UHGV virus genome: UHGV-1593002
Length of the DNA: 17,928 nt
Direction: 5' to 3' (one strand)
Source of the DNA: a virus
Part shown: positions 1-17,928 of the stretch, piece after piece
How positions within the stretch are numbered: the first letter of the stretch is position 1
How the letters are laid out: every line of letters starts with the position of its first letter
Translations under genes and position numbers: made by a program
The notes under the pieces: generated by a model
Seen by the model: only the letters and a program-made list of their open reading frames with translations
What the model was told of the DNA's origin: nothing
The model's database searches: none

Positions 1-17
1 ACATAAAACATTTTGCA

Positions 18-689
18 TCAGCGACCAATCACCACAACCTGACCACCATCCCCTTCGTCTGCCGTGCTGATCTCCTGAGAAACCACGCGTGACCCCACGC
101 GCATTTCACCGTACAGAACAGGCAGAACATTGCCCTGGGCAACCATGTTATCCAGTGAGGAGAAATAGGTGTTCTGTTTGCCGTTATCCGTTGTCTGTGT
201 ACGGGGAGTTCTGGCTTTCGGTGCCAGCATCTGCGCCACACCACCGAGCACCATACTGGCACCGAGAGAAAACAGGATGCCGGTCATACCACCGGCCCCA
301 ATGGCTGCCCCCCATGCTGCAAGGGTGGCTCCGGCAGTAAAGAATGATCCGGCAATGGCGGCTGCTCCCAGGACAATCTGGAATACGCCACCTGACTTGG
401 CCCCGGCGACTCTGGGAACAATATGAATCACAGCGCCATCAGGCAGAGTCTCATGTAACTGCGCCGTTAACCCGGACGTGCTGACGTCCCGCCCGGCAAT
501 CCGTACCTGATACCAGCCGTCGCTCAGTTTCTGACGAAACGCCGGGAGCTGTGTGGCCAGTGCGCGGATGGCTTCAGCCCCCGTTTTCACACGAAGGTCG
601 ATGCGGCGGCCAAATCGTTGCAAATCCCCGTAAAGGCAGATGCGCGCCATGCCCGGTGACGCCAGAGGGAGTGTGTGCGTCGCTGCCAT
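18..689 (-). CDS. I: Tail tip assembly protein I (lambda gpI-like), 223 aa
   Basis: Full ORF of 223 aa, the length of lambda gpI; overlaps the 3' end of K by 103 nt as in lambda; position at the distal end of the tail gene block. Identity recognised from memory of lambda. Confidence 0.9.
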   Translation of the reverse strand: MAATHTLPLASPGMARICLYGDLQRFGRRIDLRVKTGAEAIRALATQLPAFRQKLSDGWYQVRIAGRDVSTSGLTAQLHETLPDGAVIHIVPRVAGAKSGGVFQIVLGAAAIAGSFFTAGATLAAWGAAIGAGGMTGILFSLGASMVLGGVAQMLAPKARTPRTQTTDNGKQNTYFSSLDNMVAQGNVLPVLYGEMRVGSRVVSQEISTADEGDGGQVVVIGR

Positions 690-1330
690 TTGTCGGTGTA
701 CCTCTCTCGTTTGCTCAGTTGTTCAGGAATATGGTGCAGCAGCTCGCCGTCGCCGCAGTAAATTGCGGCGTGATTCGGCACCGATGAACCAAAACAGCAC
801 AGCAGCACATCGCCCGGCTGTGCCGCTGACAACGGCACCTGATACAGCCCCGTCGCCTCCAGATTATCCAGATAGAGATTCTGGCCGTTACGCCACCAGT
901 CATCCTCACGATGAAAGTCCGGCATCTCAATCCCCGCCAGATGATAAGCATCCCGGAACAGTGTGTAACAGTCCGTCACACCGTGCTCAAAGCGCCGCCC
1001 GGTGAGATGCGGCACACAGCGGAACTTATGAATCGTCCCCCGGCAGACCAGCCACCACGGCAAATCACTCTGCACCTGCAGCCGCCGGTCGGCCTCACTC
1101 AGCCAGGGCAGACCACCGGGGTGGCTGTGGACCAGCGCCACAATCTCACCCTGCATTTCTGCCTGCAGCCAGTCTTCCGGCGACATACGGAAATACGCCT
1201 CCGGCTCACCGGAGATATTCACGCAGGGGAAATATCTTTCCCCCTCCGGCGTGCTTACCACGAAGCCGCACGACTCCGCTGGCGCACATCGCCGGGCGTG
1301 CGCCAGAATCGCTGATTCTGTCTGTGTCAT
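587..1330 (-). CDS. K: Tail tip assembly protein K (JAB/MPN JAMM motif plus NlpC/P60-like C-terminal region); ORF as drawn is 247 aa, the lambda-annotated 199-aa form would start at the internal Met at 1186
   Basis: ATG at 1330 lies 5 nt after the L stop. Translation contains HSHPGGLPWLSEAD, matching the JAMM metalloprotease motif HxHx7Sx2D. The C-terminal 199 aa correspond to lambda gpK as I recall it. Confidence 0.85.
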   Translation of the reverse strand: MTQTESAILAHARRCAPAESCGFVVSTPEGERYFPCVNISGEPEAYFRMSPEDWLQAEMQGEIVALVHSHPGGLPWLSEADRRLQVQSDLPWWLVCRGTIHKFRCVPHLTGRRFEHGVTDCYTLFRDAYHLAGIEMPDFHREDDWWRNGQNLYLDNLEATGLYQVPLSAAQPGDVLLCCFGSSVPNHAAIYCGDGELLHHIPEQLSKRERYTDKWQRRTHSLWRHRAWRASAFTGICNDLAAASTFV

Positions 1331-1335
1331 GGGAT

Positions 1336-2034
1336 TTACTGCGAAAGTTTGTTAATGGAAAGGAAGCCGCCAAAGTTGCCGACGTTATTGCGGAACTTAC
1401 AACCGCTCAGGCATTTGCTGCATTTATCCTTCGTGATATCGGACGTTGGCTGGTCATATTCATCCGCGACCGCCGGACCGCTATAACCGCACTCGTCACC
1501 GCGATAGGTCCAGGTGCAGGTGTTGGCCAGCATGATACGTCCCGGAAAAACAGCGCCATCCGTTTCCGTCGGCGTGGACAGTACAAAGGAGGCACTCACC
1601 GCGCTCAGTTCGCTGCACTGCTCAATGCGCCAGCGGCTGATCACCTCCTGCTCCGGATCGGCATAACTGTTTCCGTTGACGAAGTTCACCGCATCCAGAA
1701 AACGGGCGTAAACCTTACGCCGGACCACCGTTCCGCCGACCAGACTCTGCATATCTTCCGCCATCCCGGTGACCATACCGTACAGGTTAGAAACCGTCAG
1801 CGTGGGGCGCGTACTGGTGCCTTTGCCATTCAGTTCAAAACCGCTCCCCTGAATGGGATACGGCTGATACTGTCGCCCCTGCCAGGTGACCGGCTCACCT
1901 TTTTCGTTCTGCTCATTACAGAAAAAATAACGTTCTCCACCGACCTCTGTCAGGTCGATTTCCCAGAGCACCACGCTGGCCGACTGCTCCGCACGGGTGC
2001 ATTCATTCAGTGTTTCCTGCCGGATATCCTGCAT
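1336..2034 (-). CDS. L: Tail tip assembly protein L (lambda gpL-like), 232 aa
   Basis: 232-aa ORF, same length as lambda gpL, with Cys-rich C-terminus (CSKCLSGC); start overlaps the M stop by 1 nt as in lambda. Confidence 0.9.
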   Translation of the reverse strand: MQDIRQETLNECTRAEQSASVVLWEIDLTEVGGERYFFCNEQNEKGEPVTWQGRQYQPYPIQGSGFELNGKGTSTRPTLTVSNLYGMVTGMAEDMQSLVGGTVVRRKVYARFLDAVNFVNGNSYADPEQEVISRWRIEQCSELSAVSASFVLSTPTETDGAVFPGRIMLANTCTWTYRGDECGYSGPAVADEYDQPTSDITKDKCSKCLSGCKFRNNVGNFGGFLSINKLSQ

Positions 2035-2363
2035 CAGTTCACCACCTGTTCAAACTCTGCGCTGAACTCAACACGCAGCATACTGACCCGCGACGACCAT
2101 TTTGCGCAGGTCACCTTTATCTGCCGCCACTCATAAGGCGGCGTCCACAGAAAGGCTTTCCAGCCCCCGTGCTCTTCCAGAAACGACTCCAGTACCGTGG
2201 CCTCCTCACGGGGGACAGAAAGCGTCACGCTGTACGTTTTCAGGTTGGCATTCAGCCCGGCAGGCGCTCGCTGGGAACAGCCATCACCAAAGCGCACCTT
2301 TCTTACAGAAGGGGCCGAAGCCACATCCATACCGGGTTTCACTTTCCAGCGGAAGGTTTTCAT
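2034..2363 (-). CDS. M: Tail tip assembly protein M (lambda gpM-like), 109 aa
   Basis: 109-aa ORF between H and L; start overlaps the H stop by 4 nt as in lambda. Confidence 0.9.
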   Translation of the reverse strand: MKTFRWKVKPGMDVASAPSVRKVRFGDGCSQRAPAGLNANLKTYSVTLSVPREEATVLESFLEEHGGWKAFLWTPPYEWRQIKVTCAKWSSRVSMLRVEFSAEFEQVVN

Positions 2364-4921
2364 CGTCCACCTCCGGAGAACAGACCACCATCACGCATCT
2401 GTGTCTGAATTTCATCACGGGCACCCTTGCGGGCCATGTCATACACCGCCTTCAGAGCAGCCGGACCTATCTGCCCGTTCGTGCCGTCGTTGTTAATCAC
2501 CACATGGTTATTCTGCTCAAACGTCCCGGACGCCTGCGACCGGCTGTCTGCCATGCTGCCCGGTGTACCGACATAACCGCCGGTGGCATAGCCGCGCATC
2601 AGCCGGTAAAGATTCCCCACGCCAATCCGGCTGGTTGCCTCCTTCGTGAAGACAAACTCACCACGGTGAACAATCCCCGCTGGCTCATATTTGCCGCCGG
2701 TTCCCGTAAATCCTCCGGTTGCAAAATGGAATTTCGCCGCAGCGGCCTGAATGGCTGTACCGCCTGACGCGGATGCGCCGCCACCAACAGCCCCGCCAAT
2801 GGCGCTGCCGATACTCCCGACAATCCCCACCATTGCCTGCTTAAGCAGAATTTCTGTCATCATGGACAGCACGGAACGGGTGAAGCTGCGCCAGTTCTGC
2901 TCACTGCCGGTCAGCATCGCCGCCATATTCTGTGCAATACCATCAAAGGTCTGCGTGGCTGCACTTTTTACCTGCGACATACTGTCCGTGGCGCTCTCTT
3001 CCCACTCACTCCAGCCGGACTTCAGGCCTGCCATCCAGCTCCCGCGAAGCTGGTCTTCAGCCGCCCAGGTCTTTTTCTGCTCTGACATGACGTTATTCAG
3101 CGCCAGCGGATTATCGCCATACTGTTCCTTCAGGCGCTGTTCCGTGGCTTCCCGTTCTGCCTGCCGGTCAGTCAGCCCCCGGCTTTTCGCATCAATGGCG
3201 GCCCGTTTTGCCCGTTGCTGCTGTGCGAATTTATCCGCCTGCTGCGCCAGCGCGTTCAGGCGCTCCTGATACGTAACCTTGTCGCCAAGTGCAGCCAGCT
3301 GGCGTTTGTACTCCAGCGTCTCATCTTTATGCGCCAGCAGGGATTTCTCCTGTGCGGACAGCTGGCGACGTTGTGCCGCCTCCTCCAGTACCGCGAACTG
3401 ACTTTCTGCCTTCCACAAATCCCGGCGCTGCTGGCTGATTTTCTCATTCGCTCCGGCATGCTTCTCCAGCGTCCGGAGTTCTGCCTGAAGCGTCAGCAGG
3501 GCAGCATGAGCACTGTCTTCCTGACGATCGCCCGCAGACACTTTCACGCCGGACTGTTTCGGCTTTTTCAGCGTCGCTTCATAATCCTTTTTCGCCGCCG
3601 CCATCAGCGTGTTGTAATCTGCCTGCAGGATTTTCCCGTCTTTCAGTGCCTTGTTCAGTTCTTCCTGACGGGCGGTATATTTCTCCAGCGGCGTCTGCAG
3701 CCGTTCGTAAGCCTTCTGCGCCTCTTCGGTATATTTCAGCCGTGACGCTTCGGTATCGCTCTGCTGCTGCGCATTTTTGTCCTGTTGAGTCTGCTGCTCA
3801 GCCTTCTTTCGGGCGGCTTCAAGCGCAAGACGGGCCTTTTCACGATCATCCCAGTAACGCGCCCGCGCTTCATCGTTAACAAAATAATCATCCTTGCGCA
3901 GATTCCAGATGTCGTCTGCTTTCTTAAACGCAGCCTCTGCCTTAATCAGCATCTCCTGCGCGGTATCAGGACGACCAATATCCAGCACCGCATCCCACAT
4001 GGATTTGAATGCCCGCGCAGTCCTGTCTGCCCAGGTCTCCAGCGTGCCCATGTTCTCTTTCAGGCGGCGGGTCTGGTCATCAAACCCTTTCGTTGCGGCC
4101 TCGTTCGCCGCCTGCAATGCCCCGGCTTCATCGCCGGAACGCTGCAACTGAGCAACATACGCAATCTGCTCCGCCGTCACGTTATGGAACTGGCGTGCCA
4201 TCGCCGTCAGCCCCGACGTCGGGTCTGTGGTCAGCTTCCCGAAGGCTTCAGCGACCTTGTCCACCTCCACGCCGGATGCAGAGGAGAAACGCGCCACACT
4301 CTGGCTGATGGACGCAATCTGAGCCTCACCGCTTACCCCCGCCTTAACCAGTGCGCTGAGTGACTCGCTGGTCTGGTTAAACGTCAGCCCTGCCGCCTGC
4401 CCGGCTCTGGACAGGACCAGCATACGATCTGCCGTCAGACCCGACTGATGACCGGAAAGGACCAGCGTTTTGTTGAAATCGGACAGGGTTGAGTTGCCCT
4501 GATACCAGGCATACGCCAGCGCACCGGTCGCCACCGCCAGCGAGGTGGCCCCCACCATCGGCAGGGTGATCGCACCGGCAAGCCCCCTGAACATGGGGAT
4601 CATCCCGCCGAAGGAGTCCTTCACCTGCCCCCCCTGTTGCAGCAGGATCAGCCACGGACTTTGCCCGCCTGCAAGCTGCGTGGCCACGTCAGTGAACTGC
4701 GCAGGCAGCATACGCATGGCAGCTTTATACTGCCCGACGGAAATCCCCGCTTTCTGTGCAGCCAGCGCCTGTCGGCTCAGCGACTGTTCAACGACTGCCG
4801 CTGTTTTTTTCGCATCACTTTCCGTACCGGAAAAATGACGCCTGACTCTGGCCATCTGCTCGTCAAATCTGGCCGCATCCAGACTCAAATCAACGACCAG
4901 ATCGCCTACCGGTTCAGCCAT
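2360..4921 (-). CDS. H: Tail tape measure protein H (lambda gpH-like), 853 aa
   Basis: 853-aa ORF, the length of lambda gpH; long coiled-coil-like central region rich in A/Q/E/K/R and Gly-rich C-terminal segment; overlaps T by 8 nt as in lambda. Confidence 0.95.
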   Translation of the reverse strand: MAEPVGDLVVDLSLDAARFDEQMARVRRHFSGTESDAKKTAAVVEQSLSRQALAAQKAGISVGQYKAAMRMLPAQFTDVATQLAGGQSPWLILLQQGGQVKDSFGGMIPMFRGLAGAITLPMVGATSLAVATGALAYAWYQGNSTLSDFNKTLVLSGHQSGLTADRMLVLSRAGQAAGLTFNQTSESLSALVKAGVSGEAQIASISQSVARFSSASGVEVDKVAEAFGKLTTDPTSGLTAMARQFHNVTAEQIAYVAQLQRSGDEAGALQAANEAATKGFDDQTRRLKENMGTLETWADRTARAFKSMWDAVLDIGRPDTAQEMLIKAEAAFKKADDIWNLRKDDYFVNDEARARYWDDREKARLALEAARKKAEQQTQQDKNAQQQSDTEASRLKYTEEAQKAYERLQTPLEKYTARQEELNKALKDGKILQADYNTLMAAAKKDYEATLKKPKQSGVKVSAGDRQEDSAHAALLTLQAELRTLEKHAGANEKISQQRRDLWKAESQFAVLEEAAQRRQLSAQEKSLLAHKDETLEYKRQLAALGDKVTYQERLNALAQQADKFAQQQRAKRAAIDAKSRGLTDRQAEREATEQRLKEQYGDNPLALNNVMSEQKKTWAAEDQLRGSWMAGLKSGWSEWEESATDSMSQVKSAATQTFDGIAQNMAAMLTGSEQNWRSFTRSVLSMMTEILLKQAMVGIVGSIGSAIGGAVGGGASASGGTAIQAAAAKFHFATGGFTGTGGKYEPAGIVHRGEFVFTKEATSRIGVGNLYRLMRGYATGGYVGTPGSMADSRSQASGTFEQNNHVVINNDGTNGQIGPAALKAVYDMARKGARDEIQTQMRDGGLFSGGGR

Positions 4922-5348
4922 ACCGGACTCCTCCTGCGATCCCTTCTGATACTGTCATCAGCATTGCGTCATCCTCCGTCATGTCCGCCACATCCGGGGA
5001 AGTAGGGATAACTTCATTCCCGTCCGGGCCAAAGCGGACACCTCCGGCAAGCCCTGCCGCTTTCTGCATCAGCACATCATCTTCAGGCTCTTCGTCAGCC
5101 TCGCGCCGGTTCAGCAGACTGAAATCCAGCGGATGCATATCCGGATCGCTGAAAAACAGGCTGAGCACGGTGTACGTCAGCCCGGAAAAGTGCATATCCA
5201 GCAGAACATCATGAAAATAATGGGTACTGTAAAAGCGGTGCCAGTCGGCATACTCCGTGGATGACATCCCGGCAAGCATGGCACGCCAGTCGGGTCGCCC
5301 CATCTCACGCGCCAGTTTCAGGGCAAAACTCAGCTCACCGTCGAACAC
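4914..5348 (-). CDS. T: Tail assembly chaperone T segment, expressed only as a G-T fusion by -1 programmed ribosomal frameshift from G
   Basis: ORF in the -1 frame relative to G, beginning inside the 3' end of G directly at the slippery heptamer; no plausible independent start (first codon is GTG within the slip site). Confidence 0.85.
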   Translation of the reverse strand: MFDGELSFALKLAREMGRPDWRAMLAGMSSTEYADWHRFYSTHYFHDVLLDMHFSGLTYTVLSLFFSDPDMHPLDFSLLNRREADEEPEDDVLMQKAAGLAGGVRFGPDGNEVIPTSPDVADMTEDDAMLMTVSEGIAGGVRYG

Positions 5349-5752
5349 TTTCCCGCAGAAACAGGTTCTGCGGGCCCGGCGTCCTCTGCCTGTTCAGGGG
5401 CATTATTCACCACAAACTCATACATACCAGACAGCCGGTACACCACGTTTTCAGCATGAGAAATTGCCTCTGTGGGCCAGGTGGTAAGCACTTCCTGCTC
5501 AATCTGTTTAACGGCTTCATTCATGGAAGGCTGCTTTGTCTTCTGCGGATGGTTATGCCACAGGGACATCGCCACCAGAAACGCGCCGGTTCTGATGGCG
5601 TCTTCCACAGTAAACTTCCGGTTGCTGTCTGACTCCGCCTGTTCTGCCTGCCGTTTCATCAGGGCGAGATGCTCAATACGCTGCAGGGCTGACAGTTCAG
5701 AAAGCGTGACGGTCACACCGTTATGTTCAAATGATTCGGTTTTCAGGAACAT
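5330..5752 (-). CDS. G: Tail assembly chaperone G (lambda gpG-like), 140 aa
   Basis: 140-aa ORF immediately downstream of V; contains the frameshift site near its 3' end. Confidence 0.9.
   Translation of the reverse strand: MFLKTESFEHNGVTVTLSELSALQRIEHLALMKRQAEQAESDSNRKFTVEDAIRTGAFLVAMSLWHNHPQKTKQPSMNEAVKQIEQEVLTTWPTEAISHAENVVYRLSGMYEFVVNNAPEQAEDAGPAEPVSAGKCSTVS
5348..5354 (-). other. -1 programmed ribosomal frameshift slippery heptamer G GGA AAG (G to G-T)
   Basis: Minus-strand sequence GGGAAAG is in X XXY YYZ register with the G reading frame (G codons GGA and AAG); the -1 frame continues open into T. Confidence 0.8.
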
Positions 5753-5767
5753 CTCTGACTCTCCGGA

Positions 5768-6508
5768 TTAACTGGCGGTGACGGTGATTTCTGCAACCGC
5801 AGCAAACTCACCATTACCGGATACAATCGGAATGTTGACCTTGCCTGCAGCAACGCCATTCACGGTGATGGTCATACCACTGACCGACACGGTGGCTTTT
5901 GTTTTATCCGCTGACACCGCACGGAAGCTCTTGTCGGTTGCGCCTTCCGGCTGGAATGCCACGGTCAGCGTGGTGCTCTTCCCTTTCACTACGGAAGCGC
6001 TGGCTGGCGTCACGGTCATACCGGTTACCGCTGTTACCGTGCTGCGATCTTCTGCCATCGACGGACGTCCCACATTGGTGACTTTCACCGTGCGGGTGAT
6101 CACTTCCTTCGCCGTCACCGCCTTACCGATACTGCTGACCCAGCCGCGGAACACATCGACCGTGCCGTTCGGGAAGCGGATTTTATAGGCACGGGTATCA
6201 CCTTCATTAAACCACGCCAGCAGCGCCTGCTGCCCCTGCTCTCCGGGCATCCACGCCAGCGTGAAGCTGGTATCTCCGGCGGATTTCTGCCCCTGTCCGG
6301 TCGCGGTCCAGTCCGCATCTTCATCATCGAGATAACTGTCGTCATAGGACTCAGCGGTCAGTTCGCCGGGCGTCAGGTCTTTAACCTTTGCCAGACGCGA
6401 CCAGTCATTGTCTGAAAGCGGGTTTGCATAAGGGTCGCCGCTCCCGTTATAAACCCACAGGGTGGTCCCGGCCCCTTTCACCGGTGCCAGAGGATTTGGT
6501 GTTGGCAT
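5768..6508 (-). CDS. V: Major tail tube protein V (lambda gpV-like), 246 aa
   Basis: Recognisable gpV sequence with the C-terminal Ig-like segment; start placed at the ATG giving MPTPNPL (246 aa), not the longer ORF-finder start at 6538. Confidence 0.9.
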
Positions 6509-6515
6509 ATCGTCC

Positions 6516-6911
6516 TCACATTTCATAGGTAATGACATAAGTCAGATCGGCTGAACTCCACAGGCCCGCATCATCGTCGCGCCGGTAGTCATAGCCACTG
6601 GCCACCATACTGGTGATCAAATCTGACAGTGCCGGGATATCGCTCATCACCGGATAAATCCGGGACTCCATCCACGCATCCAGCTCTGAATCCGGCACCT
6701 GAGCAGGCAGGAAAACTTCGATATGCAGCTCCGCCTGCCAGGTATCGCTGTCCAGCTCTTCGCCCGTGTATTCAGCGCCGGTGAGATAAACGGCAACTGC
6801 CGGAAAATCCGCCTCATCAAAAACAGCGGGGCGACCATCAAAAAACGTCGCCCCGGTGTCATGCTTCTCCAGTGCATCCAGTACGGCTGCGCGGAGTTCA
6901 GTATGTTTCAT
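6516..6911 (-). CDS. U: Tail terminator protein U (lambda gpU-like), 131 aa
   Basis: 131-aa ORF; start overlaps the Z stop by 4 nt as in lambda. Confidence 0.9.
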
Positions 6912-7486
6912 CGCTTTATTACCATTCTCAGTTGATGCTGCAGCGCATAGCCCAGCTCTTTCGGAAGACGTTCACGCCGTATCCGCTCAATATTCTGTTT
7001 AAACGCCGTGGTCAGCGGCACCGCCATCGGAATTTTCACCACATCAATGGGGTAACGGTTTTTCCCGGCCACACGCTGCATGACATGCCACCGGCCATTT
7101 TTCAGTTGCTGAATAAACGCGCCGGGAATACGACGGTTTCCCACCACAAGCACGCTGCCGCCACCTTTCAGGGATGAACGCTGCCCCTTTTTACGACGCC
7201 TGCGGCGCGAAAGGACAACCCGCGCATTACCCAGCTTGATTACGGGCAAATCCCCCCGGTTAACCTTGATTCTGGCCTGCGGATTTTTGACCGTGGCCCT
7301 TTTCAGCCTGGCCCTTTCCTTTACCAGTTTCCGGCGTACCTTTGTCTCACGGGCAACCTGTGACGCCGACTGCGATATCGCGGATGAAGCAACTCGGTTA
7401 ATGGCCATTGCGGCGGCACCGGGCACCGCCGTTCTGCTGATACGGCTGAGGTTTTCAACGGCCTGCTCAAGACCTTTTATGGCCAT
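6908..7486 (-). CDS. Z: Tail completion protein Z (lambda gpZ-like), 192 aa
   Basis: 192-aa basic protein (RRRRRKKGQR stretch) between FII and U. Confidence 0.9.
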   Translation of the reverse strand: MAIKGLEQAVENLSRISRTAVPGAAAMAINRVASSAISQSASQVARETKVRRKLVKERARLKRATVKNPQARIKVNRGDLPVIKLGNARVVLSRRRRRKKGQRSSLKGGGSVLVVGNRRIPGAFIQQLKNGRWHVMQRVAGKNRYPIDVVKIPMAVPLTTAFKQNIERIRRERLPKELGYALQHQLRMVIKR

Positions 7487-7497
7487 ACATCCCCCTT

Positions 7498-7851
7498 TCA
7501 GCGGCGACGGTTAACGGCAGGCGGTACGCCCCGTCCAAGCCAGAGATGACAGCTTCCGCCATCATCCGGCGAAACCCGATCTACCCAGAAATTTTCCTCA
7601 CCGATGGTCAGCGTGTCTCCACGCCGCAGCTGCCGCACCTCATCAGTCCGGACAAACAGGGACGGGCTGGAGCCTTCAACGCGCACGCCCTGTCCGGCAT
7701 AGCTGATATTTTCAGGGTCATCAAAAACACCACGTATCACCGCACCTGACTGCTCACCGGATGTAATGGTGGCTGACGTTCCCATGTACCCGCGTATCGT
7801 TTCATCGGCGCGGGCAATGGCAGCATCGAACAGGTTATCGAAATCAGCCAC
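7498..7851 (-). CDS. FII: Head-tail connector protein FII (lambda gpFII-like), 117 aa
   Basis: 117-aa ORF in the conserved position between FI and Z. Confidence 0.9.
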   Translation of the reverse strand: MADFDNLFDAAIARADETIRGYMGTSATITSGEQSGAVIRGVFDDPENISYAGQGVRVEGSSPSLFVRTDEVRQLRRGDTLTIGEENFWVDRVSPDDGGSCHLWLGRGVPPAVNRRR

Positions 7852-7862
7852 AGCGCCTCCCG

Positions 7863-8261
7863 TTATTGCATTCTGGCCAGGCCGCGCTCTGTCATTTCGG
7901 CTGCCACACCGGCAGAGACACGAAACGCCGTTCCCGGCAGCACAAATGCCACAGGTTCATCCCGCGTGGCGTGAAGTGCATCAGTATGCAGCTTCACCAG
8001 TGCCACGACCGTGACCAGTTCAGACGTATCCAGAATCACGGTATCCGGCTGCGCTGATCCCACCTCATTTTCATGTCCGGTCAGCACATTTTCCCGGCTG
8101 AGAGGGGTGTCCTGACCGGCAGTTTCATCCGTGTCATCAAGCTCCTCTTTCAGCTCTGCCACACGGAGCGCCAGTTCTTCTTTCGTCCCCGTCAGGCTGA
8201 CATCACGGTTCAGTTGTTCACCCAGCGAGCGGAGACGGGCAATCAGTTCATCTTTCGTCAT
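7863..8261 (-). CDS. FI: DNA packaging / head assembly protein FI (lambda gpFI-like), 132 aa
   Basis: Start placed at the ATG giving MTKDELIARL (132 aa); the longer ORF-finder start at 8300 is rejected; acidic linker region typical of gpFI. Confidence 0.9.
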   Translation of the reverse strand: MTKDELIARLRSLGEQLNRDVSLTGTKEELALRVAELKEELDDTDETAGQDTPLSRENVLTGHENEVGSAQPDTVILDTSELVTVVALVKLHTDALHATRDEPVAFVLPGTAFRVSAGVAAEMTERGLARMQ

Positions 8262-8302
8262 GGACTCCTCCACAGAGAAACAATGGCCCCGAAGGGCCAT
8301 GA

Positions 8303-9328
8303 TTACGCCAGTTGAACGGACACGAACTCATCAGGATCAGCCAGCAGCATCAGCGGTGCTGACTGAATCATGGTGAACTCACGCGCCGGATCGCCGGTAG
8401 TCACCCAGTTTTTCGGGTAACGGGCAGAGGCGTTAATGCCTTCGCGCTGTGCGTCCGCATCCTGAATGCAGCCATAGGTGCGCAGACCGCGAGCCTGAGT
8501 GTTCCCCAGCACCATCGTGTTGTCCGGCAGGAAGTTCTTTTTGACGCCGTTTTCCACGTACTGTCCGGAATACACGACGATGGCCACATCGCCATACATT
8601 CCCTTATAGGACACCGCTTTGCCCAGGTCTTTTACCGCTGTCTCCAGCTCGGAATGAGAGCCGCGACGGGTATCCAGCTTCTCCTTGACGGCTTTGAAGG
8701 AACGGAACAGCGCCCAGCCTTTCGGATCAAACACGATGATATTCACCACACCGCTGGCGTTCAGCGCGTAGGCTTCGATATCGTCGGTCGGGTCATACGT
8801 GGACTTGTCACGCTTGCTCCACTCCGTGCCGCCGGACTGCGTGATGTTATTCGCCTCACTGCGGCCCATATCCACCTCAACCGGATCGAAGGCTTCACCG
8901 GTCATGGTATATTTGCCCTTAAGCACGGCAGAAACTGCCTGCATCTCTTCGACCTGAGCAATGGCCAGCTCTTCGTCACGCATGTTCTGCATGATGATGC
9001 GACGGCGGCGGTAAGCCGGGTCCGCCAGATTCTGCGGATCTTCATCCGGCAGGCGACGCAGGGTCATCTGCGGATTCACTTCATGCTTGGGTTTGACATA
9101 TCCCGGCGTAAATTCAGAGGTGGAGCCGCCACGGGAACGGATAACCTCACCGGAAACAATCGGCGAAACGTACAGCGCCATGTTTACCAGTCCCGGAATT
9201 TGTGAGAGATAGACTTTCTCCGTAGTGAAGGGATAGCTCTCACGGAAAAAGAGACGCAGAAACAGCGGATCAAACTTAAATTTCTGCTCATTTGCCGCCA
9301 GCAGCTGGGCGGTTGTGTACATCGACAT
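8303..9328 (-). CDS. E: Major capsid protein E (lambda gpE-like), 341 aa
   Basis: Start at the ATG giving MSMYTTAQLL (341 aa); the ORF-finder extension upstream is rejected. Confidence 0.95.
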   Translation of the reverse strand: MSMYTTAQLLAANEQKFKFDPLFLRLFFRESYPFTTEKVYLSQIPGLVNMALYVSPIVSGEVIRSRGGSTSEFTPGYVKPKHEVNPQMTLRRLPDEDPQNLADPAYRRRRIIMQNMRDEELAIAQVEEMQAVSAVLKGKYTMTGEAFDPVEVDMGRSEANNITQSGGTEWSKRDKSTYDPTDDIEAYALNASGVVNIIVFDPKGWALFRSFKAVKEKLDTRRGSHSELETAVKDLGKAVSYKGMYGDVAIVVYSGQYVENGVKKNFLPDNTMVLGNTQARGLRTYGCIQDADAQREGINASARYPKNWVTTGDPAREFTMIQSAPLMLLADPDEFVSVQLA

Positions 9329-9342
9329 AAAAAAATCCCGTA

Positions 9343-9367
9343 AAAAAAGCCGCACAGGCGGCCTTTA
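9343..9367 (-). promoter_or_regulatory. Intercistronic GC hairpin followed by a T7 run between D and E
   Basis: Minus strand reads GGCCGCCTGTGCGGC followed by TTTTTTT, 5-6 bp G/C stem with CTGT loop, directly upstream of the E start. Confidence 0.35.
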
Positions 9368-9383
9368 GTGATGAAGGGTAAAG

Positions 9384-9716
9384 TTAAACGATGCTGATTG
9401 CCGTTCCGGCAAACGCGGTCCGTTTTTTCGTCTCGTCGCTGGCAGCCTCCGGCCAGAGCACATCCTCATAACGGAACGTGCCGGACTTGTAGAACGTCAG
9501 CGTGGTGCTGGTCTGGTCAGCAGCAACCGCAAGAATGCCAACGGCAGCACCGTCGGTGGTGCCATCCCACGCAACCAGCTTACGGCTGGAGGTGTCCAGC
9601 ATCAGCGGGGTCATTGCAGGCGCTTTCGCACTCAATCCGCCGGGCGCGGTTGCGGTATGAGCCGGGTCACTGTTGCCCTGCGGCTGGTAATGGGTAAAGG
9701 TTTCTTTGCTCGTCAT
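9384..9716 (-). CDS. D: Capsid decoration protein D (lambda gpD-like), 110 aa
   Basis: Start at the second in-frame ATG ([11 protein letters not shown]), which has AAGGG about 6 nt upstream; 110 aa. Confidence 0.9.
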
Positions 9717-9725
9717 AAACATCCC

Positions 9726-10331
9726 TTACACTGGTGTGTTCAGCAAATCGTTAACGGCATCAGATGCCGGGTTACCTGCAGCCAGCGGTGCCGGTGCCCC
9801 CTGCATCAGACGATCCAGCGCAGTGTCACTGCGCGCCTGTGCACTCTGTGGTGCTGCGGCCAGAATGCGGCGGGCCGTTTTCACGGTCATACCGGGGGTT
9901 TCTGCCAGCACGCGTGCCTGTTCTTCGCGTCCGTGAGCCTCCTCACAGTTGAGGATCCCCATAATGCGGCTGTTTTCTGCCGCAACCGCTGCGGTGATCT
10001 GCGCGTTCACGTCCGGCTGCGCCGCGCTGGCGTTCTCGCCCTCCGTCGCTGGCACCACGTCAGTAACGTCAGCCTGCGAAGCAGTGGCTGAAACAGTTGT
10101 TGATTGAGTCTCTTTGGTCATTCGCCCTCCTGAGAGACGGGATTTACGTGCATCCAGTGCATCACGCATGACGGTGATCGCATCGGTGCTGTTAACAAGT
10201 TCATCAGCCAGTCCGGCATCAATGGCCTCCTGACCGCTGTACACTGCAGCCTCGGTATCCAGCACAGCCTGCACGGACAGGCCGGTATATGCCGACACCT
10301 TCTGTGCAAACATCCGGCGGGTTGCATCCAT
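9726..10331 (-). CDS. Nu3: Scaffolding protein Nu3, nested in frame within the 3' third of C
   Basis: Internal in-frame ATG at 10331 (MDATRRMFAQ) giving a 201-codon product co-terminal with C, the lambda C/Nu3 arrangement. Confidence 0.8.
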   Translation of the reverse strand: MDATRRMFAQKVSAYTGLSVQAVLDTEAAVYSGQEAIDAGLADELVNSTDAITVMRDALDARKSRLSGGRMTKETQSTTVSATASQADVTDVVPATEGENASAAQPDVNAQITAAVAAENSRIMGILNCEEAHGREEQARVLAETPGMTVKTARRILAAAPQSAQARSDTALDRLMQGAPAPLAAGNPASDAVNDLLNTPV

Positions 10332-11025
10332 CCGGGACTGCAGTGTTTCCCGGACATCATCCGGTAGATGGCTGTAGGGGTTGCCATCCACCTTATGGCT
10401 GCCGCTGTAAATCAGCGTGATTTCCACGCCCTGTTTCTCCAGCGCAGCACCGTAATTACTGTGAGCCATCATGACGCCGATGGAGCCTGTCCGGGCGGTC
10501 TGCGTGACCAGACGCCGGGAGGCGGCGCTGGCAAGCAGCTGACCTGCACTGCAGTTCATGTCGTTGGCCAGCGCCCATACCGGTTTTATGTCTCGCACAC
10601 GGGCGATGATGTCAGCACAGTCAAATGCTCCCGCCACCATCCCGCCCGGTGTGTCCATATCCAGCAGAATGCCGTCCACCATCGGATCGCTGGCAGCCTG
10701 TTGCAGACGGGCGATAATGCCGTTGTAACCGGTCATTCCCGAATACGGCTGCAGCGCCCGCGTCCGGCTGACCAGCGTACCGGACACCGGCAGCACGGCG
10801 ATGCCGTTCATGACCTGATAACTGCGGGCCTGTCGTGGTCCGTCATCATCACCGGATAACGCCAGCGCCGCGGGTGCCTCTCCGGCAGTCAGGCTGTCGC
10901 CGGATACTGCATCCGTCAGGCGGCTGATCCCAAACTGGCCTGCAAGCGCACAAAAGAAAACCCGCGCATAGGCGGGTTCAAGCATCAGCGGCTCATTAAA
11001 AGCCATGCTGGCAATATGCGGGAGA

Positions 11026-11045
<20 letters not shown>
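9726..11045 (-). CDS. C: Capsid assembly protease C (lambda gpC-like, S49/ClpP-type), 439 aa, GTG start
   Basis: GTG at 11045 overlaps the 3' end of B by 20 nt, as in lambda; the 484-aa ORF-finder version is an in-frame read-through of the B 3' end. Confidence 0.85.
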
Positions 11046-14726
<3,681 letters not shown>

Positions 14727-14752
<26 letters not shown>

Positions 14753-15272
14753 TCAGCAACCCCGGTATCAGTTCATCCAGCGCGGCTGCTTTGTTCATGG
14801 CTTTGATAATATCCCGTTTCAGGAAATCAACATGTCGGTTTTCCAGTTCCGGAAAACGCCGCTGCACCGACAGGGGGAGCCCGTCGAGAATACTGGCAAT
14901 TTCACCTGCGATCCGCGACAACACGAAAGTACAGAATGCGGTTTCCACCACTTCAGCGGAGTCTCTGGCATTCTTCAGTTCCTGTGCGTCGGCCTGCGCA
15001 CGCGTAAGTCGATGGCGTTCGTACTCAATAGTTCCTGGCTGGAGATCTGCCTCGCTGGCCTGCCGCAGTTCTTCAACCTCCCGGCGCAGCTTTTCGTTCT
15101 CAATTTCAGCATCCCTTTCGGCATACCATTTTATGACGGCGGCAGAGTCATAAAGCACCTCATTACCCTTGCCACCGCCTCGCAGAACGGGCATTCCCTG
15201 TTCCTGCCAGTTCTGAATGGTACGGATACTCGCACCGAAAATGTCAGCCAGCTGCTTTTTGTTGACTTCCAT
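14727..15272 (-). CDS. Nu1: Terminase small subunit Nu1 (lambda gpNu1-like), 181 aa
   Basis: 181-aa ORF starting MEVNKKQLADIFGASIRTIQNWQEQGMPV (winged-HTH N-terminus), immediately downstream of cosB. Confidence 0.95.
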
Positions 15273-15289
15273 TGTTCATTCCACGGACA

Positions 15290-15449
15290 AAAACAGAGAA
15301 AGGAAACGACAGAGGCCAAAAAGCTCGCTTTCAGCACCTGTCGTTTCCTTTCTTTTCAGAGGGTATTTTAAATAAAAACATTAAGTTATGACGAAGAAGA
15401 ACGGAAACGCCTTAAACCGGAAATTTTTCATAAATAGCGAAAACCCGCG
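15290..15449. promoter_or_regulatory. cosB: terminase (Nu1) binding region with three R elements and an AT-rich putative IHF bend
   Basis: Three copies of the CGTTTCC core (15302-15308 and 15403-15409 as GGAAACG, 15342-15348 as CGTTTCC); the two inner copies form an inverted repeat (GAAAGGAAACGACAG / CTGTCGTTTCCTTTC) flanking AT-rich DNA; located between cosN and the Nu1 start. Confidence 0.7.
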
Positions 15450-15461
15450 AGGTCGCCGCCC
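15450..15461. other. cosN: the 12-bp lambda cohesive-end sequence (joined form)
   Basis: Plus strand AGGTCGCCGCCC is the reverse complement of the lambda cohesive end GGGCGGCGACCT; the flanking sequence matches the lambda left and right termini as I recall them. Confidence 0.85.
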
Positions 15462-15467
15462 CGTAAC

Positions 15468-15495
15468 CTGTCGGATCGCCGGAAAGGACCCGCAA
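15468..15495. promoter_or_regulatory. cosQ region (approximate)
   Basis: Placed by position only, about 15-30 bp on the right-end side of cosN where lambda cosQ lies; the motif itself was not verified. Confidence 0.4.
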
Positions 15496-15660
15496 AATGA
15501 TAATAATTATCATCTGCATGTCACAACGTGCATCTACGCCATCAAACCACGTCAAATAATCAATTATGACGCAGGTATCATATTAATTGATCTGCATCAA
15601 CTTAACGTAAAAACAACTTCAGACAATACAAATCAGCGACACTAAATACGGGACAACCTC

Positions 15661-15894
15661 ATGTCAACGAAGAACAGAACCCGCAGAACAACAATCCGCA
15701 ACATCCGCTTTCCTAACCAAATGATTGAACAAATTAACATCGCTCTTGATCAAAAAGGGTCCGGGAATTTCTCAGCCTGGGTCATTGAAGCCTGCCGCCG
15801 GAGACTGTGCTCAGAAAAAAGAGTTTCTCCTGAAGCAAACAAAGAAAAGAGTGACATTACTGAATTGCTCAGAAAACAGATCAGACCAGATTGA
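15661..15894 (+). CDS. ylcI: Ribbon-helix-helix DNA-binding protein, YlcI/YnfO (DUF3950)-like, 77 aa
   Basis: MSTKNRTRRTTIRNIRFPNQMIEQINIALDQKGSGNFSAWVIEACRRRL fits an RHH fold (beta strand TIRNIRF, helix NQMIEQINIALDQ, turn GSGN, helix FSAWVIEACRRRL) and matches my recollection of the DLP12 prophage protein YlcI, which lies next to the Nu1 homologue nohD. Confidence 0.65.
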   Translation: MSTKNRTRRTTIRNIRFPNQMIEQINIALDQKGSGNFSAWVIEACRRRLCSEKRVSPEANKEKSDITELLRKQIRPD

Positions 15895-15950
15895 AGCAAT
15901 TTAGATAATCGTGCAGACTACGCCCCTCATATCACATGGAAGGTACCACA

Positions 15951-16361
15951 ATGGCTCAGGTTGCCATTTTTAAACAAATATTCGATAAAGTGCGAAATAA
16001 TTTAAACTATCACTGGTTTTATTCTGAACTAAAACGTCACAATGTCTCACATTACATTTACTATTTAGCTACAGAGAATATTCATCTTGTTCTTGAAAAC
16101 GATAATACGGTTTTAATAAAAGGACAGGGTAAGGTTGTAAATGTAAGATTTTCAAAAAATAAATGCCTTATAGAAGCCACCTTAAAAGGATTCAAATCAG
16201 GAGAGTTATCATTTTACGAATACAGGAAAAATCTTGCTACAGCAGGGGTTTTCAGATGGATTACAAATATCCACGAAAACAAAAGGTATTACTATACCTT
16301 TGATAATTCATTACTCTTTACTGAGAACATTCAGAACACTACACAAATATTTCCGCACTAA
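15951..16361 (+). CDS. Hypothetical prophage moron protein, candidate DUF1398 (YbcV/YdfO-like), 136 aa from the second ATG
   Basis: ORF 15936-16361; the second ATG at 15951 has GGAAGG 7 nt upstream. Markedly AT-rich compared with the late genes; 56 nt downstream of the YlcI-like gene on the same strand. Family assignment is from memory and unverified. Confidence 0.55.
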
Positions 16362-16406
16362 ATCATAACGTCCGGTTTCTTCCGTGCCAGAACCGGACTC
16401 GCTGGC

Positions 16407-16571
16407 ATGATGAAATATGTGTACCCGGTAACCCCGGTGTGCATCGTTTTTGATTATTCCCGCACACTCGCGCAGAAGGAGTTCCCCGTCGGGCTACGGT
16501 CTCTGTTAATACGGGAATACGGCGACGATACAGCGCATGATGTGTCAGGCTTGAATACCTTTATCCTTTAA
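16407..16571 (+). CDS. Hypothetical small ORF, 54 aa (MMKYVYPVTPVCIVFDYSRTLAQKEFPVGLRSLLIREYGDDTAHDVSGLNTFIL)
   Basis: Uninterrupted 55-codon frame with ATG start, found by hand (below the ORF-track length cut-off); lies between a perfect 8-bp hairpin (16372-16399) and a plus-strand terminator; no convincing RBS. Confidence 0.2.
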   Translation: MMKYVYPVTPVCIVFDYSRTLAQKEFPVGLRSLLIREYGDDTAHDVSGLNTFIL

Positions 16572-16617
16572 AAGGGATATCAGTTAAGTTATCCCGTGTA
16601 GGGTATAAACCATTATC

Positions 16618-16647
16618 AAAGCCACTCTGTAGGAAGTGGCTTTTGTA
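16618..16647 (+). terminator. Putative rho-independent terminator (plus strand)
   Basis: AAAGCCAC - 10-nt loop - GTGGCTTT stem followed by TTTTGTAAT; no T-run on the opposite strand. Confidence 0.5.
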
Positions 16648-16650
16648 ATG

Positions 16651-16680
16651 GCAATAAAAAGCCCCGCGAATGCGAGGCTA
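16651..16680 (-). terminator. Putative rho-independent terminator (minus strand)
   Basis: Minus strand AGCCTCGC-ATTC-GCGGGGCT (8-bp stem with one G-U pair, 4-nt loop) followed by TTTTTATT; about 27 nt downstream of the small ORF that follows Rz. Confidence 0.6.
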
Positions 16681-16706
16681 AATCCTGGTATTTGTAATGA
16701 CTGGTT

Positions 16707-16856
16707 CTTATCTCAACGCAGCCCCTTACCGCGCGCAAAATGCTCAATATCAAGCATCAGCAATGAGATGTTTAATCTGGATTCACTCCAGAAGTGAGCA
16801 CCACCCTGTCTACAGAGCCAGATGTGAAGGATGATGAGTAAAATTATCGCTATCAT
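16707..16856 (-). CDS. Hypothetical small protein, 49 aa, hydrophobic N-terminus ([47 protein letters not shown])
   Basis: ATG overlaps the Rz TGA stop in an ATGA arrangement (translational coupling); ORF is followed by the minus-strand terminator; found by hand, not on the ORF track. Confidence 0.3.
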
Positions 16857-17320
16857 CGAAGGCATTGCGTCCTGATGTATTCCTGAAGCGTTCTCAGTGC
16901 TGTTTGGTCGCGGATAATTCCGTCCCGGATACCGAGAACGTTTCGTCCAGCAACTGGAGAGAGTTCGACGGTGGCATCATTGCCCATGCCGGAGGCGCTG
17001 GAGGTTTCGGCTGAGGATGGCACAGGGCATTTTCCTTTGACGAGCACCCGACCACCATTATCAAGCTTGCGCCGAAGAGCATCATTTTCAGCTTTCGCAT
17101 CAGCTAACTCCTTCGTGTATTTATCATCGAGTGCATCAGCATCACGCTGGCGCTGCTGCATGTCAGTAATGGTGGCGTTCGCCTTCTCCAGTTCACTGGC
17201 CTTGTTATCACGCTGTTCTTTGTAGGCGATTGCATTATCACGGTAATGATTAACAGCCCATGACAGGCAGACGATGATGCAGATAACCAGAGCGGAGATA
17301 ATCGCGGTTACCCTGCTCAT
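16853..17320 (-). CDS. Rz: i-spanin Rz, 155 aa from the ATG at 17320
   Basis: N-terminal TM anchor ([26 protein letters not shown]) followed by a charged coiled-coil-like region; ATG overlaps the endolysin TGA stop (ATGA); contains the embedded Rz1 frame. The ORF-track start at 17332 is a GTG and was rejected. Confidence 0.85.
16894..17100 (-). CDS. Rz1: o-spanin Rz1 (outer-membrane lipoprotein), embedded in the +1 frame of Rz, 68 aa
   Basis: [21 protein letters not shown] contains a signal-peptidase II lipobox (VVGC); Pro-rich mature region ([16 protein letters not shown]); entirely inside Rz in a different frame. Confidence 0.8.
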
Positions 17321-17810
17321 TGTTGCCCCCACAAACAGACCTCACGCTCAATCTCACGACGAGTCATCAGGCCTTTCCATTGCTTACCGCCAGCGTATGC
17401 CCAGCGACGTAGCTGGTCACATGCGCCCTTGATATCGCCCTGGTTTATTTTGCGAAGAAGAGTAGATGTTCTGAAATTGCCTGCGCCCACGTTATAGACG
17501 AACGAGTAAAGAGCGCCGCGCGTTGTTTCCGGTATATCGACTTTGATGTACGGGTTAATTTGTCTGGCTACCGTGGCAAGGTCTTTATTCAGGAGGGCTT
17601 TGCATTCTGCTTCGGTATACGTTTTACCGGGAATGATGTCTTTTCCTGTATGCCCGTGACATACAGTCCATACGCCAACGATATCTTTGTATGGTATGTA
17701 GCTGACACCTTCCAGACCATCGTTACCACTTGGGCCAGTGATTAACACTGATGCTATAGCAATTGCTCCGCCACCAATAGCAGCAGCAACGGCTTTTCGT
17801 AATGATGGAG
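17317..17810 (-). CDS. R: SAR endolysin (phage 21 R / DLP12 RrrD-like lysozyme, GH24), 5' end interrupted by IS2 at about codon 2
   Basis: Gly/Ala-rich weakly hydrophobic SAR segment ([23 protein letters not shown]) followed by a T4-lysozyme-like E-x8-D-x5-T catalytic motif ([16 protein letters not shown]). The in-frame 5' extension to a TTG at 17838 lies inside the IS2 terminal repeat, so the native start codon and RBS are missing. Confidence 0.8.
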
Positions 17811-17928
17811 TAGACTGGCCCCCTGAATCTCCAGACAACCAGTATCACTTAAATAAGTGATAGTCTTAATACTAGTTTTTAGACTAGTCATTGGAGAACA
17901 GATGATTGATGTCTTAGGGCCGGAGAAA
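17811..17928 (+). mobile_element. IS2 insertion sequence, left end (IRL) and first 118 bp; element continues beyond the window
   Basis: TAGACTGGCCCCCTGAATCTCCAGACAACC... matches the IS2 left terminal inverted repeat as I recall it, and 91 bp later the InsC (OrfA) start MIDVLGPEK begins. Confidence 0.85.
17902..17928 (+). CDS. insC: IS2 transposase OrfA (InsC), N-terminal 9 codons only (truncated by window end)
   Basis: ATG ATT GAT GTC TTA GGG CCG GAG AAA = MIDVLGPEK, the N-terminus of IS2 InsC, preceded by GGAGAA as RBS. Confidence 0.8.

Follow-up and report, generated by a model that had tools for sequence, protein, structure and literature searches.

The stretch of viral DNA analysed here (UHGV virus genome UHGV-1593002, 17,928 nt; hereafter the window) carried a phage lambda-type morphogenesis arm, the lambda cohesive-end site cos and, beyond cos, a short accessory block and a lysis region that ended at a copy of the insertion sequence IS2. 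The interval under study, 15273–17810, began at the base next to the Nu1 start codon and stopped immediately ahead of the IS2 end, and the genes of the window's late operon lay on the minus strand. The initial annotation, made from the sequence alone, had described this interval as a lambda-colinear structural arm joined to a lysis region other than that of lambda, and this headline was borne out. The main features, with positions, strand, assignment and supporting matches, were as follows (ORF, open reading frame; HSP, high-scoring segment pair; SAR, signal-anchor-release).

1–15461, minus strand: lambda-type morphogenesis arm, I to Nu1, with every ORF open (identity and ORF mapping to lambda).
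15273–15461: cos region left of the nick, from cosN to Nu1, 99.6% identical to lambda 1–462 (HSP).
15462–15823: segment right of cos, 94.2% identical to lambda and 97% to DLP12, carrying the first 54 codons of the ynfO/ylcI ORF.
15661–15894, plus strand: ynfO-type gene, 77 aa, DUF3950 (PF13132, 5.3e-21; phrog_949), annotated as "YlcI/YnfO family protein" in the identical segment of Escherichia coli MS6198.
15951–16361, plus strand: DUF1398 gene, 136 aa (PF07166, 3.3e-43; PDB 2hh8, YdfO, 2.9e-67), homologous to lambdap78, YbcV and YdfO.
16853–17320, minus strand: Rz i-spanin, 155 aa, HK620-family allele (PF03245, 3.8e-29; phrog_13).
16894–17100, minus strand: Rz1 o-spanin, 68 aa (PF06085, 3.8e-21; phrog_3198; alignment with lambda Rz1 and RzoD).
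17317–17810, minus strand: SAR endolysin ORF of the RrrD/phage 21 type, from codon 2 on and with its stop (PF00959 Phage_lysozyme, 8.5e-46; PDB matches).
17811–17928, plus strand: left end of IS2, identical to positions 1–118 of K-12 IS2A at 117 of 118 positions, with the ATG of insC at 17902.

The left arm was the reverse complement of lambda NC_001416, window 1–15461 corresponding to lambda 1–15461. An end-to-end alignment gave 98.6% identity with 210 mismatches and two 1-nt indels, and identity was at least 95.4% in every 500-bp bin. The ORFs mapped one to one onto the lambda annotation (Nu1, A, W, B, C/Nu3, D, E, FI, FII, Z, U, V, G, T, H, M, L, K and I) and kept the overlaps of lambda. 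The 12-nt cohesive end AGGTCGCCGCCC was located at 15450–15461 and the right end of lambda resumed at 15462, with the nick at 15461/15462. A colinear Nu1-to-I order, high nucleotide identity and the lambda cohesive-end sequence thus mark the arm as of the Lambdavirus type, and the gene order, lengths and overlaps from I to cos were indeed those of lambda, as first annotated, the arm showing no substantial divergence. Between cosN and Nu1, an interval that in lambda is the terminase-binding site cosB, a 25-nt inverted repeat was found at 15297–15353.

The sole indels relative to NC_001416 were a G absent at lambda 138 (window approximately 15324) and an additional G at lambda 14266. The latter opened gene K (window 587–1330, minus strand) to 247 codons, abutting L, versus 199 codons in the lambda annotation. 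Both positions are published corrections of the 1982 lambda sequence, for which a literature check yielded nothing usable, and gene K may thus be annotated as too short in the reference.

To the right of cos the similarity was patchy. The region 15001–17928 was compared by blastn with lambda, the DLP12 and Qin regions of K-12, HK620, mEp460, phage Kati and the E. coli MS6198 chromosome, and identities were binned; phage 21 was compared through PDB entry 3hde only, which we take to be its endolysin, the PDB table naming it just "Lysozyme". Positions 15001–15823 shared 97% identity with DLP12. Among lambda, DLP12 and Qin, the next 54 bp (15824–15877) matched Qin only; lambda has 613 bp at this place and DLP12 has ybcW. 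Identity to lambda (lambdap78 and the downstream spacer) was 82% at 15878–16537, and that to DLP12 (ybcV) was 83%, while a Qin HSP ran colinear from nohA over 15001–16399 at 91.3% overall. From 16370 to 17319 the window shared 93% identity with mEp460, and from 16654 to 17320 95.5% with HK620, the Qin-like and mEp460-like matches overlapping at 16370–16399. Similarity to lambda and DLP12 returned only at 17073–17320, the first 248 nt of Rz (88%), and the DLP12 match was unbroken from there through the endolysin (17073–17810, 92.3%; rrrD and the 5' half of rzpD). Beyond 17810, no alignment was obtained in the phage collection or in the 100%-identical chromosomal copies. The alignments with lambda, DLP12 and Qin that the initial annotation had proposed as a check therefore showed a patchwork right of cos, not a lambda-identical segment.

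The distance from the Rz stop (16853) to the cos nick was 1391 bp, versus 2075 bp in lambda (46427 to 48502), which agrees with the previous estimate of about 1.4 kb against about 2 kb. The difference of 684 bp was fully accounted for by two replacements: lambda 47528–48140 (613 bp, including lambdap79) was swapped for 54 bp, and the bor segment 46428–46867 (440 bp) was swapped for 315 bp. Anywhere in the window, tblastn gave no match better than E=1 for Bor/BorD, lambdap79/YbcW or lambda R, and none better than E=2.3 for lambda Bor and BorD, so that the reported lack of bor was confirmed. The map drawn from these alignments has at least five breakpoints, near 15823, 15877, approximately 16370–16537, 17072 and 17320, and the one junction originally proposed is too few.

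The product predicted for Rz had a hydrophobic N-terminus and matched the Phage_lysis Pfam family, as expected of an i-spanin. Rz1 was embedded wholly within Rz in the +1 frame (start offset 220 nt) and possessed a VVGC lipobox and a proline-rich mature part. Compared with lambda Rz, 71 of the first 83 residues were identical but only 25 of the remaining 69, in agreement with the earlier description of a lambda-like N-terminus and a diverged C-terminal half. Nucleotide identity to lambda dropped from about 88% to about 50% at window 17073, that is, at Rz nucleotide 248 or so and 28 nt past the Rz1 start, and no nucleotide HSP was found beyond this point; the pair therefore did not belong to the lambda Rz/Rz1 allele family. 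The HK620 gene, in contrast, matched over its whole length at 95.5% nucleotide identity, with 74/83 identical residues in the N-terminal and 69/72 in the C-terminal half, and mEp460 gave 72/83 and 71/72. Spanins of HK620, mEp460, Gifsy-1 and others have been catalogued as a family apart from the group with phage 21, DE3, HK629 and HK630 (Kongari et al. 2018, PMC6139136). Since HK620 and mEp460 match the whole of Rz and form a separately catalogued family, the break in the middle of Rz divides two old allele families. Judged by these alignments, it sets apart two established families with a conserved 5' half in common and is not specific to this prophage, and by the same comparison the module boundary relative to HK620 and mEp460 falls at the R/Rz gene boundary, 17320/17321.

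Between the two spanin alleles, the membrane anchor and first coiled-coil shared approximately 86–89% amino acid identity, whereas the distal Rz helix and all of mature Rz1, from 28 nt past the Rz1 start, shared approximately 36%. One conceivable reading, which we hold only tentatively and rate at somewhat less than even odds, is that the lambda-type and HK620-type alleles are an old intragenic chimera pair, in which the contacting tips of Rz and Rz1 were exchanged as one co-adapted cassette with the 5' half of Rz as the recombination handle. This reading is plausible and of modest interest.

The predicted endolysin was similar to PDB 4zpu (RrrD; 1.9e-107) and 3hde (1.3e-106), the alignments covering residues 3–165 of each chain. 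As in members of glycoside hydrolase family 24 (GH24), the Glu-Asp-Thr catalytic positions (LEG...YKD...WT) were conserved and unchanged from 4zpu; in phage 21 numbering these are presumably E35, D44 and T50. The Gly/Ala-rich, weakly hydrophobic N-terminal SAR segment was identical to that of RrrD (4zpu) in the alignment, 3hde matched the same residues, and release of this segment from the membrane is predicted. The enzyme was thus a SAR endolysin of the 21/DLP12 type and not lambda R, as had been proposed.

The endolysin ORF lacked its own start. Alignment with Kati and MS6198 showed that its first 4 nt (ATGC) were replaced at 17811 by the end of IS2, which was inserted after nucleotide 4 of the ORF; this insertion is the new detail at the locus. 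The boundary in the window coincided with the first annotated base of K-12 IS2A, and the hits were annotated as "IS3-like element IS2 family transposase". insC reads away from the endolysin, and the rest of the element lies beyond the window end, 118 nt into IS2, which measures 1331 bp in K-12. In intact copies elsewhere, essD or a 68-aa holin adjoined the endolysin start. Insertion after nucleotide 4 therefore displaces the ATG together with the holin and the late promoter, which intact copies carry upstream of the ORF. Because the ORF is parted from its start codon, holin and late promoter, the prophage copy is probably lysis-defective. The insertion is also the best evidence in the window for a resident prophage over a free phage genome. 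No contiguous match to the endolysin-IS2 junction was found among 5426 complete E. coli genomes. The first account had been silent on the interval ending where IS2 cuts the endolysin ORF.

IS2 was also seen in related cassettes of other E. coli genomes. In AP021892 and CP059929, a similarly oriented IS2 splits the rrrD gene of another prophage remnant, located beside trkG, after 84 and 93 nt, respectively, and in CP100947 IS2 is located just upstream of essD. IS2 seems to have entered lysis cassettes of the rrrD type several times independently, and such recurrent hits might mark a repeated disarming of prophage lysis.

The ynfO and DUF1398 genes ran against the late operon and converged on it. 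The C-terminal 23 codons of ynfO were of the Qin type and not of the DLP12/lambda type, as shown by alignment with YnfO, YlcI and the lambda ORF, and the DUF1398 gene was a diverged allele with 67% to 90% identity per 100-bp bin to lambda, DLP12 and Qin. The G+C content was 38% to 40% across 15501–16500, the only low-G+C stretch of the window, versus 52% to 62% in the arm. By base composition the block would qualify as a moron in the sense of Juhala and Hendrix, and terminator-like hairpins lie downstream. At the corresponding place and in the same orientation, lambda carries the DUF1398 gene lambdap78 (82% nucleotide identity). Hence, the designation of a non-lambda moron module held in part: the alleles differed, and bor and lambdap79 were missing, but lambda itself has lambdap78 and a ylcI-like ORF in this position.

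Regarding the latter, an unannotated ORF of 64 codons was noted near the right end of lambda, on the complement strand from 48303 to approximately 48109, identical at every residue to DLP12 YlcI (DUF3950). Divergence of the DUF1398 allele peaked in the middle of the gene, where 16101–16200 shared 67% to 75% nucleotide identity with lambda, DLP12 and Qin, most flanking bins sharing 84% to 90%. For YnfO, no PDB match was obtained and a permissive Pfam scan gave DUF3950 only; by eye, the pattern RFP...IEQINIAL...SAWVIEACRRRL resembled a ribbon-helix-helix DNA-binding fold, which no tool result supported and which is not claimed here. Literature searches for DUF1398, ynfO and ydfO found no functional study.

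The whole block 15273–17810 (2538 bp) was contiguous and 100% identical in the chromosomes of E. coli MS6198, ST648, ECONIH1 and others. At least 80% of it was covered in 535 of the 5426 complete E. coli genomes, with a median of 6 matching places per genome. The isolated phage Kati (PP925833) shared 99.4% identity over the same block and 97.9% over the lambda-like arm, and the part with endolysin, Rz and downstream sequence (16434–17810) was also present in phages Ayreon and vB_EcoS-569R4 (96% to 97%). Kati and the MS6198, ST648 and ECONIH1 prophages possess the same arm, cos, ynfO, DUF1398 gene, small ORFs, HK620-type Rz/Rz1 and RrrD-type endolysin, but have an intact endolysin start followed by a holin of 68 to 71 aa (essD type) where the window has IS2.

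Other relatives shared parts of this arrangement. The right end of lambda has its lysis genes in the order and orientation seen in the window, along with cos and an accessory block on the opposite strand, and is 88% identical to it over the first 248 nt of Rz, 82% over the DUF1398 gene and 94% over the 362 bp nearest cos; lambda R, however, is a transglycosylase of another family, the 3' half of Rz and Rz1 share only 36% amino acid identity, and lambda has bor and lambdap79, which the window lacked, its interval being 684 bp shorter. DLP12 (essD, rrrD, rzpD/rzoD, borD, ybcV, ybcW, ylcI and nohD) likewise has an rrrD-type endolysin adjoining Rz (92.3% nucleotide identity) and a similar nohD/cos/ylcI side (97%), but differs in its lambda-type Rz/Rz1, in borD and ybcW, and in a ylcI of 64 aa versus 77 aa in the window. 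Qin (nohA, ynfO and ydfO) was colinear at 91.3% from Nu1/nohA via ynfO (77 aa) and the DUF1398 gene to 16399, whereas it goes on with gnsB, cspI and an unrelated spanin/lysozyme pair, rzpQ and rrrQ. The phages with HK620-family spanins (HK620, mEp460, Gifsy-1 and others) resembled the window in the whole of Rz (95.5% nucleotide identity to HK620), in Rz1 in the +1 frame and in having the same 50-codon ORF downstream, but the neighbouring endolysin is lambda R-like in HK620 and a 177-aa lysozyme in mEp460, that of the window being of the RrrD/phage 21 type.

Taken together, it is highly probable (about 90%) that the interval holds the end farthest from the promoter of a lambda-family prophage's late operon, together with the cos site behind it, and that this prophage end was assembled as a patchwork, most likely by homologous recombination, and cut by IS2, leaving the prophage probably lysis-defective. 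On the minus strand, the operon would run from the SAR endolysin through Rz with its embedded Rz1 and the 50-codon ORF to a terminator, towards which the ynfO/DUF1398 pair would converge from the other strand; this pair would occupy the place of bor, lambdap78 and lambdap79 in lambda and would be followed by cos and the near-lambda-identical arm. By analogy with phage 21 and lambda, the endolysin would be exported by its N-terminal SAR domain and would stay inactive in the inner membrane until a pinholin depolarised the membrane, whereupon Rz and Rz1 would span the periplasm and disrupt the outer membrane. The modules each have counterparts elsewhere at 91% to 100% identity, and the most likely origin of the arrangement would be homologous recombination in the conserved flanks of variable parts, the candidates being the Nu1/cos side, the hairpin that follows the DUF1398 gene and the first half of Rz. 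Recombination between lambda and DLP12 has yielded active phages that carry DLP12 lysis genes, with replacement of lambda R and Rz or of nu1; the exchanges spanned R, Rz, cos, nu1 and A, and half of the junctions adjoined cos (De Paepe et al. 2014, PMC3945230). Conserved stretches at the module edges of the window fit the mechanism shown there.

Several points weigh against this interpretation. The recombination mechanism proposed for this lineage is inferred from breakpoint positions. The window contains no attachment site or bacterial flank, so that the term prophage rests on the IS2 insertion and the identical chromosomal copies. An in-frame TTG at 17838 within the IS2 end opens a potential fusion ORF of 173 aa, and loss of the endolysin is thus not certain; the holin and the remaining IS2 fall beyond the window. 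As for the accessory pair, a consensus scan found no plus-strand sigma-70-like promoter upstream of 15661, such sites being no commoner than in shuffled sequence, and its independent expression is therefore not supported.

The TTG start, or a complementing endolysin, would allow lysis to survive IS2 and the prophage to be still fully functional, as might be suspected from morphogenetic ORFs that are all open and an endolysin with intact SAR domain and catalytic residues. Reading by eye found no Shine-Dalgarno-like sequence ahead of the TTG, however, IS2 has separated the ORF from its ATG and the preceding translational context, and the additional 1.3 kb lengthens the genome to be packaged, so a functional prophage is unlikely. 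About equally improbable is the origin given in the initial annotation, in which the junction inside Rz arose recently in this very prophage when a 5' half of the lambda type was fused with a 3' half of foreign origin. The break at nucleotide 248 or so is real: similarity to lambda (88%) and to DLP12 ends abruptly at 17073, with about 50% beyond, and the DLP12 match covers the endolysin and the first part of Rz without interruption. That the break was made in this prophage was not supported, given that HK620 Rz matches the entire gene (95.5%), mEp460 matches 16370–17319 at 93%, and the 5' half is per bin at least as near to HK620 (92% and 90%) as to lambda (85% and 90%) or DLP12 (84% and 88%); moreover, the published catalogue of spanins gives the full-length allele a family of its own (PMC6139136).

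A recent lambda x DLP12 hybrid of the classical qsr' type, with its lysis region taken directly from the K-12 cryptic prophage, would account for the DLP12-like endolysin and Rz 5' half as well as for 97% identity to DLP12 at 15001–15823, and hybrids of this kind form readily (PMC3945230). Yet rrrD is just 92.3% identical to that of DLP12, the 3' half of Rz and Rz1 have no nucleotide match there, borD and ybcW are absent and the 3' end of ynfO is of the Qin type; the segments that do not match DLP12 effectively refute such a hybrid, which we regard as very improbable. Least credible of all is an assembly chimera, in which the junctions would be artefacts of reads merged from several prophages. 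The many related lambdoid segments per E. coli genome (median of 6 matching places) can confuse assemblers, but the 2538-bp block recurs, contiguous and at 100% identity, across many complete chromosomes that are independent of one another, and a phage isolated separately has it at 99.4%. The patchwork prophage cut by IS2 thus remains the preferred interpretation.

Between the DUF1398 gene and Rz, smaller features were predicted as follows.

16370–16399, plus strand: hairpin just past the DUF1398 stop, common to lambda, DLP12, Qin and mEp460 (-13.4 kcal/mol, z -1.1; weak alone).
16407–16571, plus strand: 54-codon ORF, "hypothetical" in phage Kati, with no Pfam or PHROG match.
16610–16651: palindromic hairpin (-21.1 kcal/mol, z -5.4; terminator scan).
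16679–16660, minus strand: hairpin with a T-run (-15.2 kcal/mol, z -2.9; terminator scan).
16713–16865, minus strand: 50-codon ORF with a hydrophobic N-terminus, overlapping the Rz stop (phrog_11822, 1.8e-36; annotated in MS6198 and mEp460).

The two terminator-like hairpins at 16610–16679 stood back to back between the converging units, and the records of phages Ayreon and epsilon34 give a "terminator" feature for their matches to this segment. The 50-codon ORF follows directly after Rz in HK620, mEp460, Sf6 and epsilon34 (approximately 96% nucleotide identity), a constant place at the end of the lysis cassette. The 54-codon ORF is possibly not a gene. The mEp460 match starts at 16370, and the start of the 83-codon minus-strand gp59 lies approximately 86 nt in, the gene extending past the match start; by this comparison, a 34-codon minus-strand ORF at 16363–16467 may be the remnant of a gene cut at the module junction. 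An 85-codon ORF across cos (15388–15645) and a 45-codon ORF at 16616–16753 had no family match and were taken as chance ORFs. A scan of the whole window with Rfam at gathering thresholds returned no match.

In kind and detail, the interval is already known: it is an ordinary mosaic of the textbook lambdoid type, and all of its modules are found almost unchanged in catalogued phages or cryptic prophages. The initial interpretation was accordingly supported in part, being right in outline and imprecise on the Rz junction and on the foreignness of the accessory genes. The whole arrangement is shared by hundreds of E. coli genomes and one isolated phage, and it has little consequence beyond annotation. 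The ynfO/DUF1398 pair adjoins cos in lambda, DLP12 and Qin. For annotation, the spanin is better labelled as HK620-family than as lambda-type, and the copy is best treated as probably lysis-defective, the start of its SAR lysozyme having been removed by IS2.

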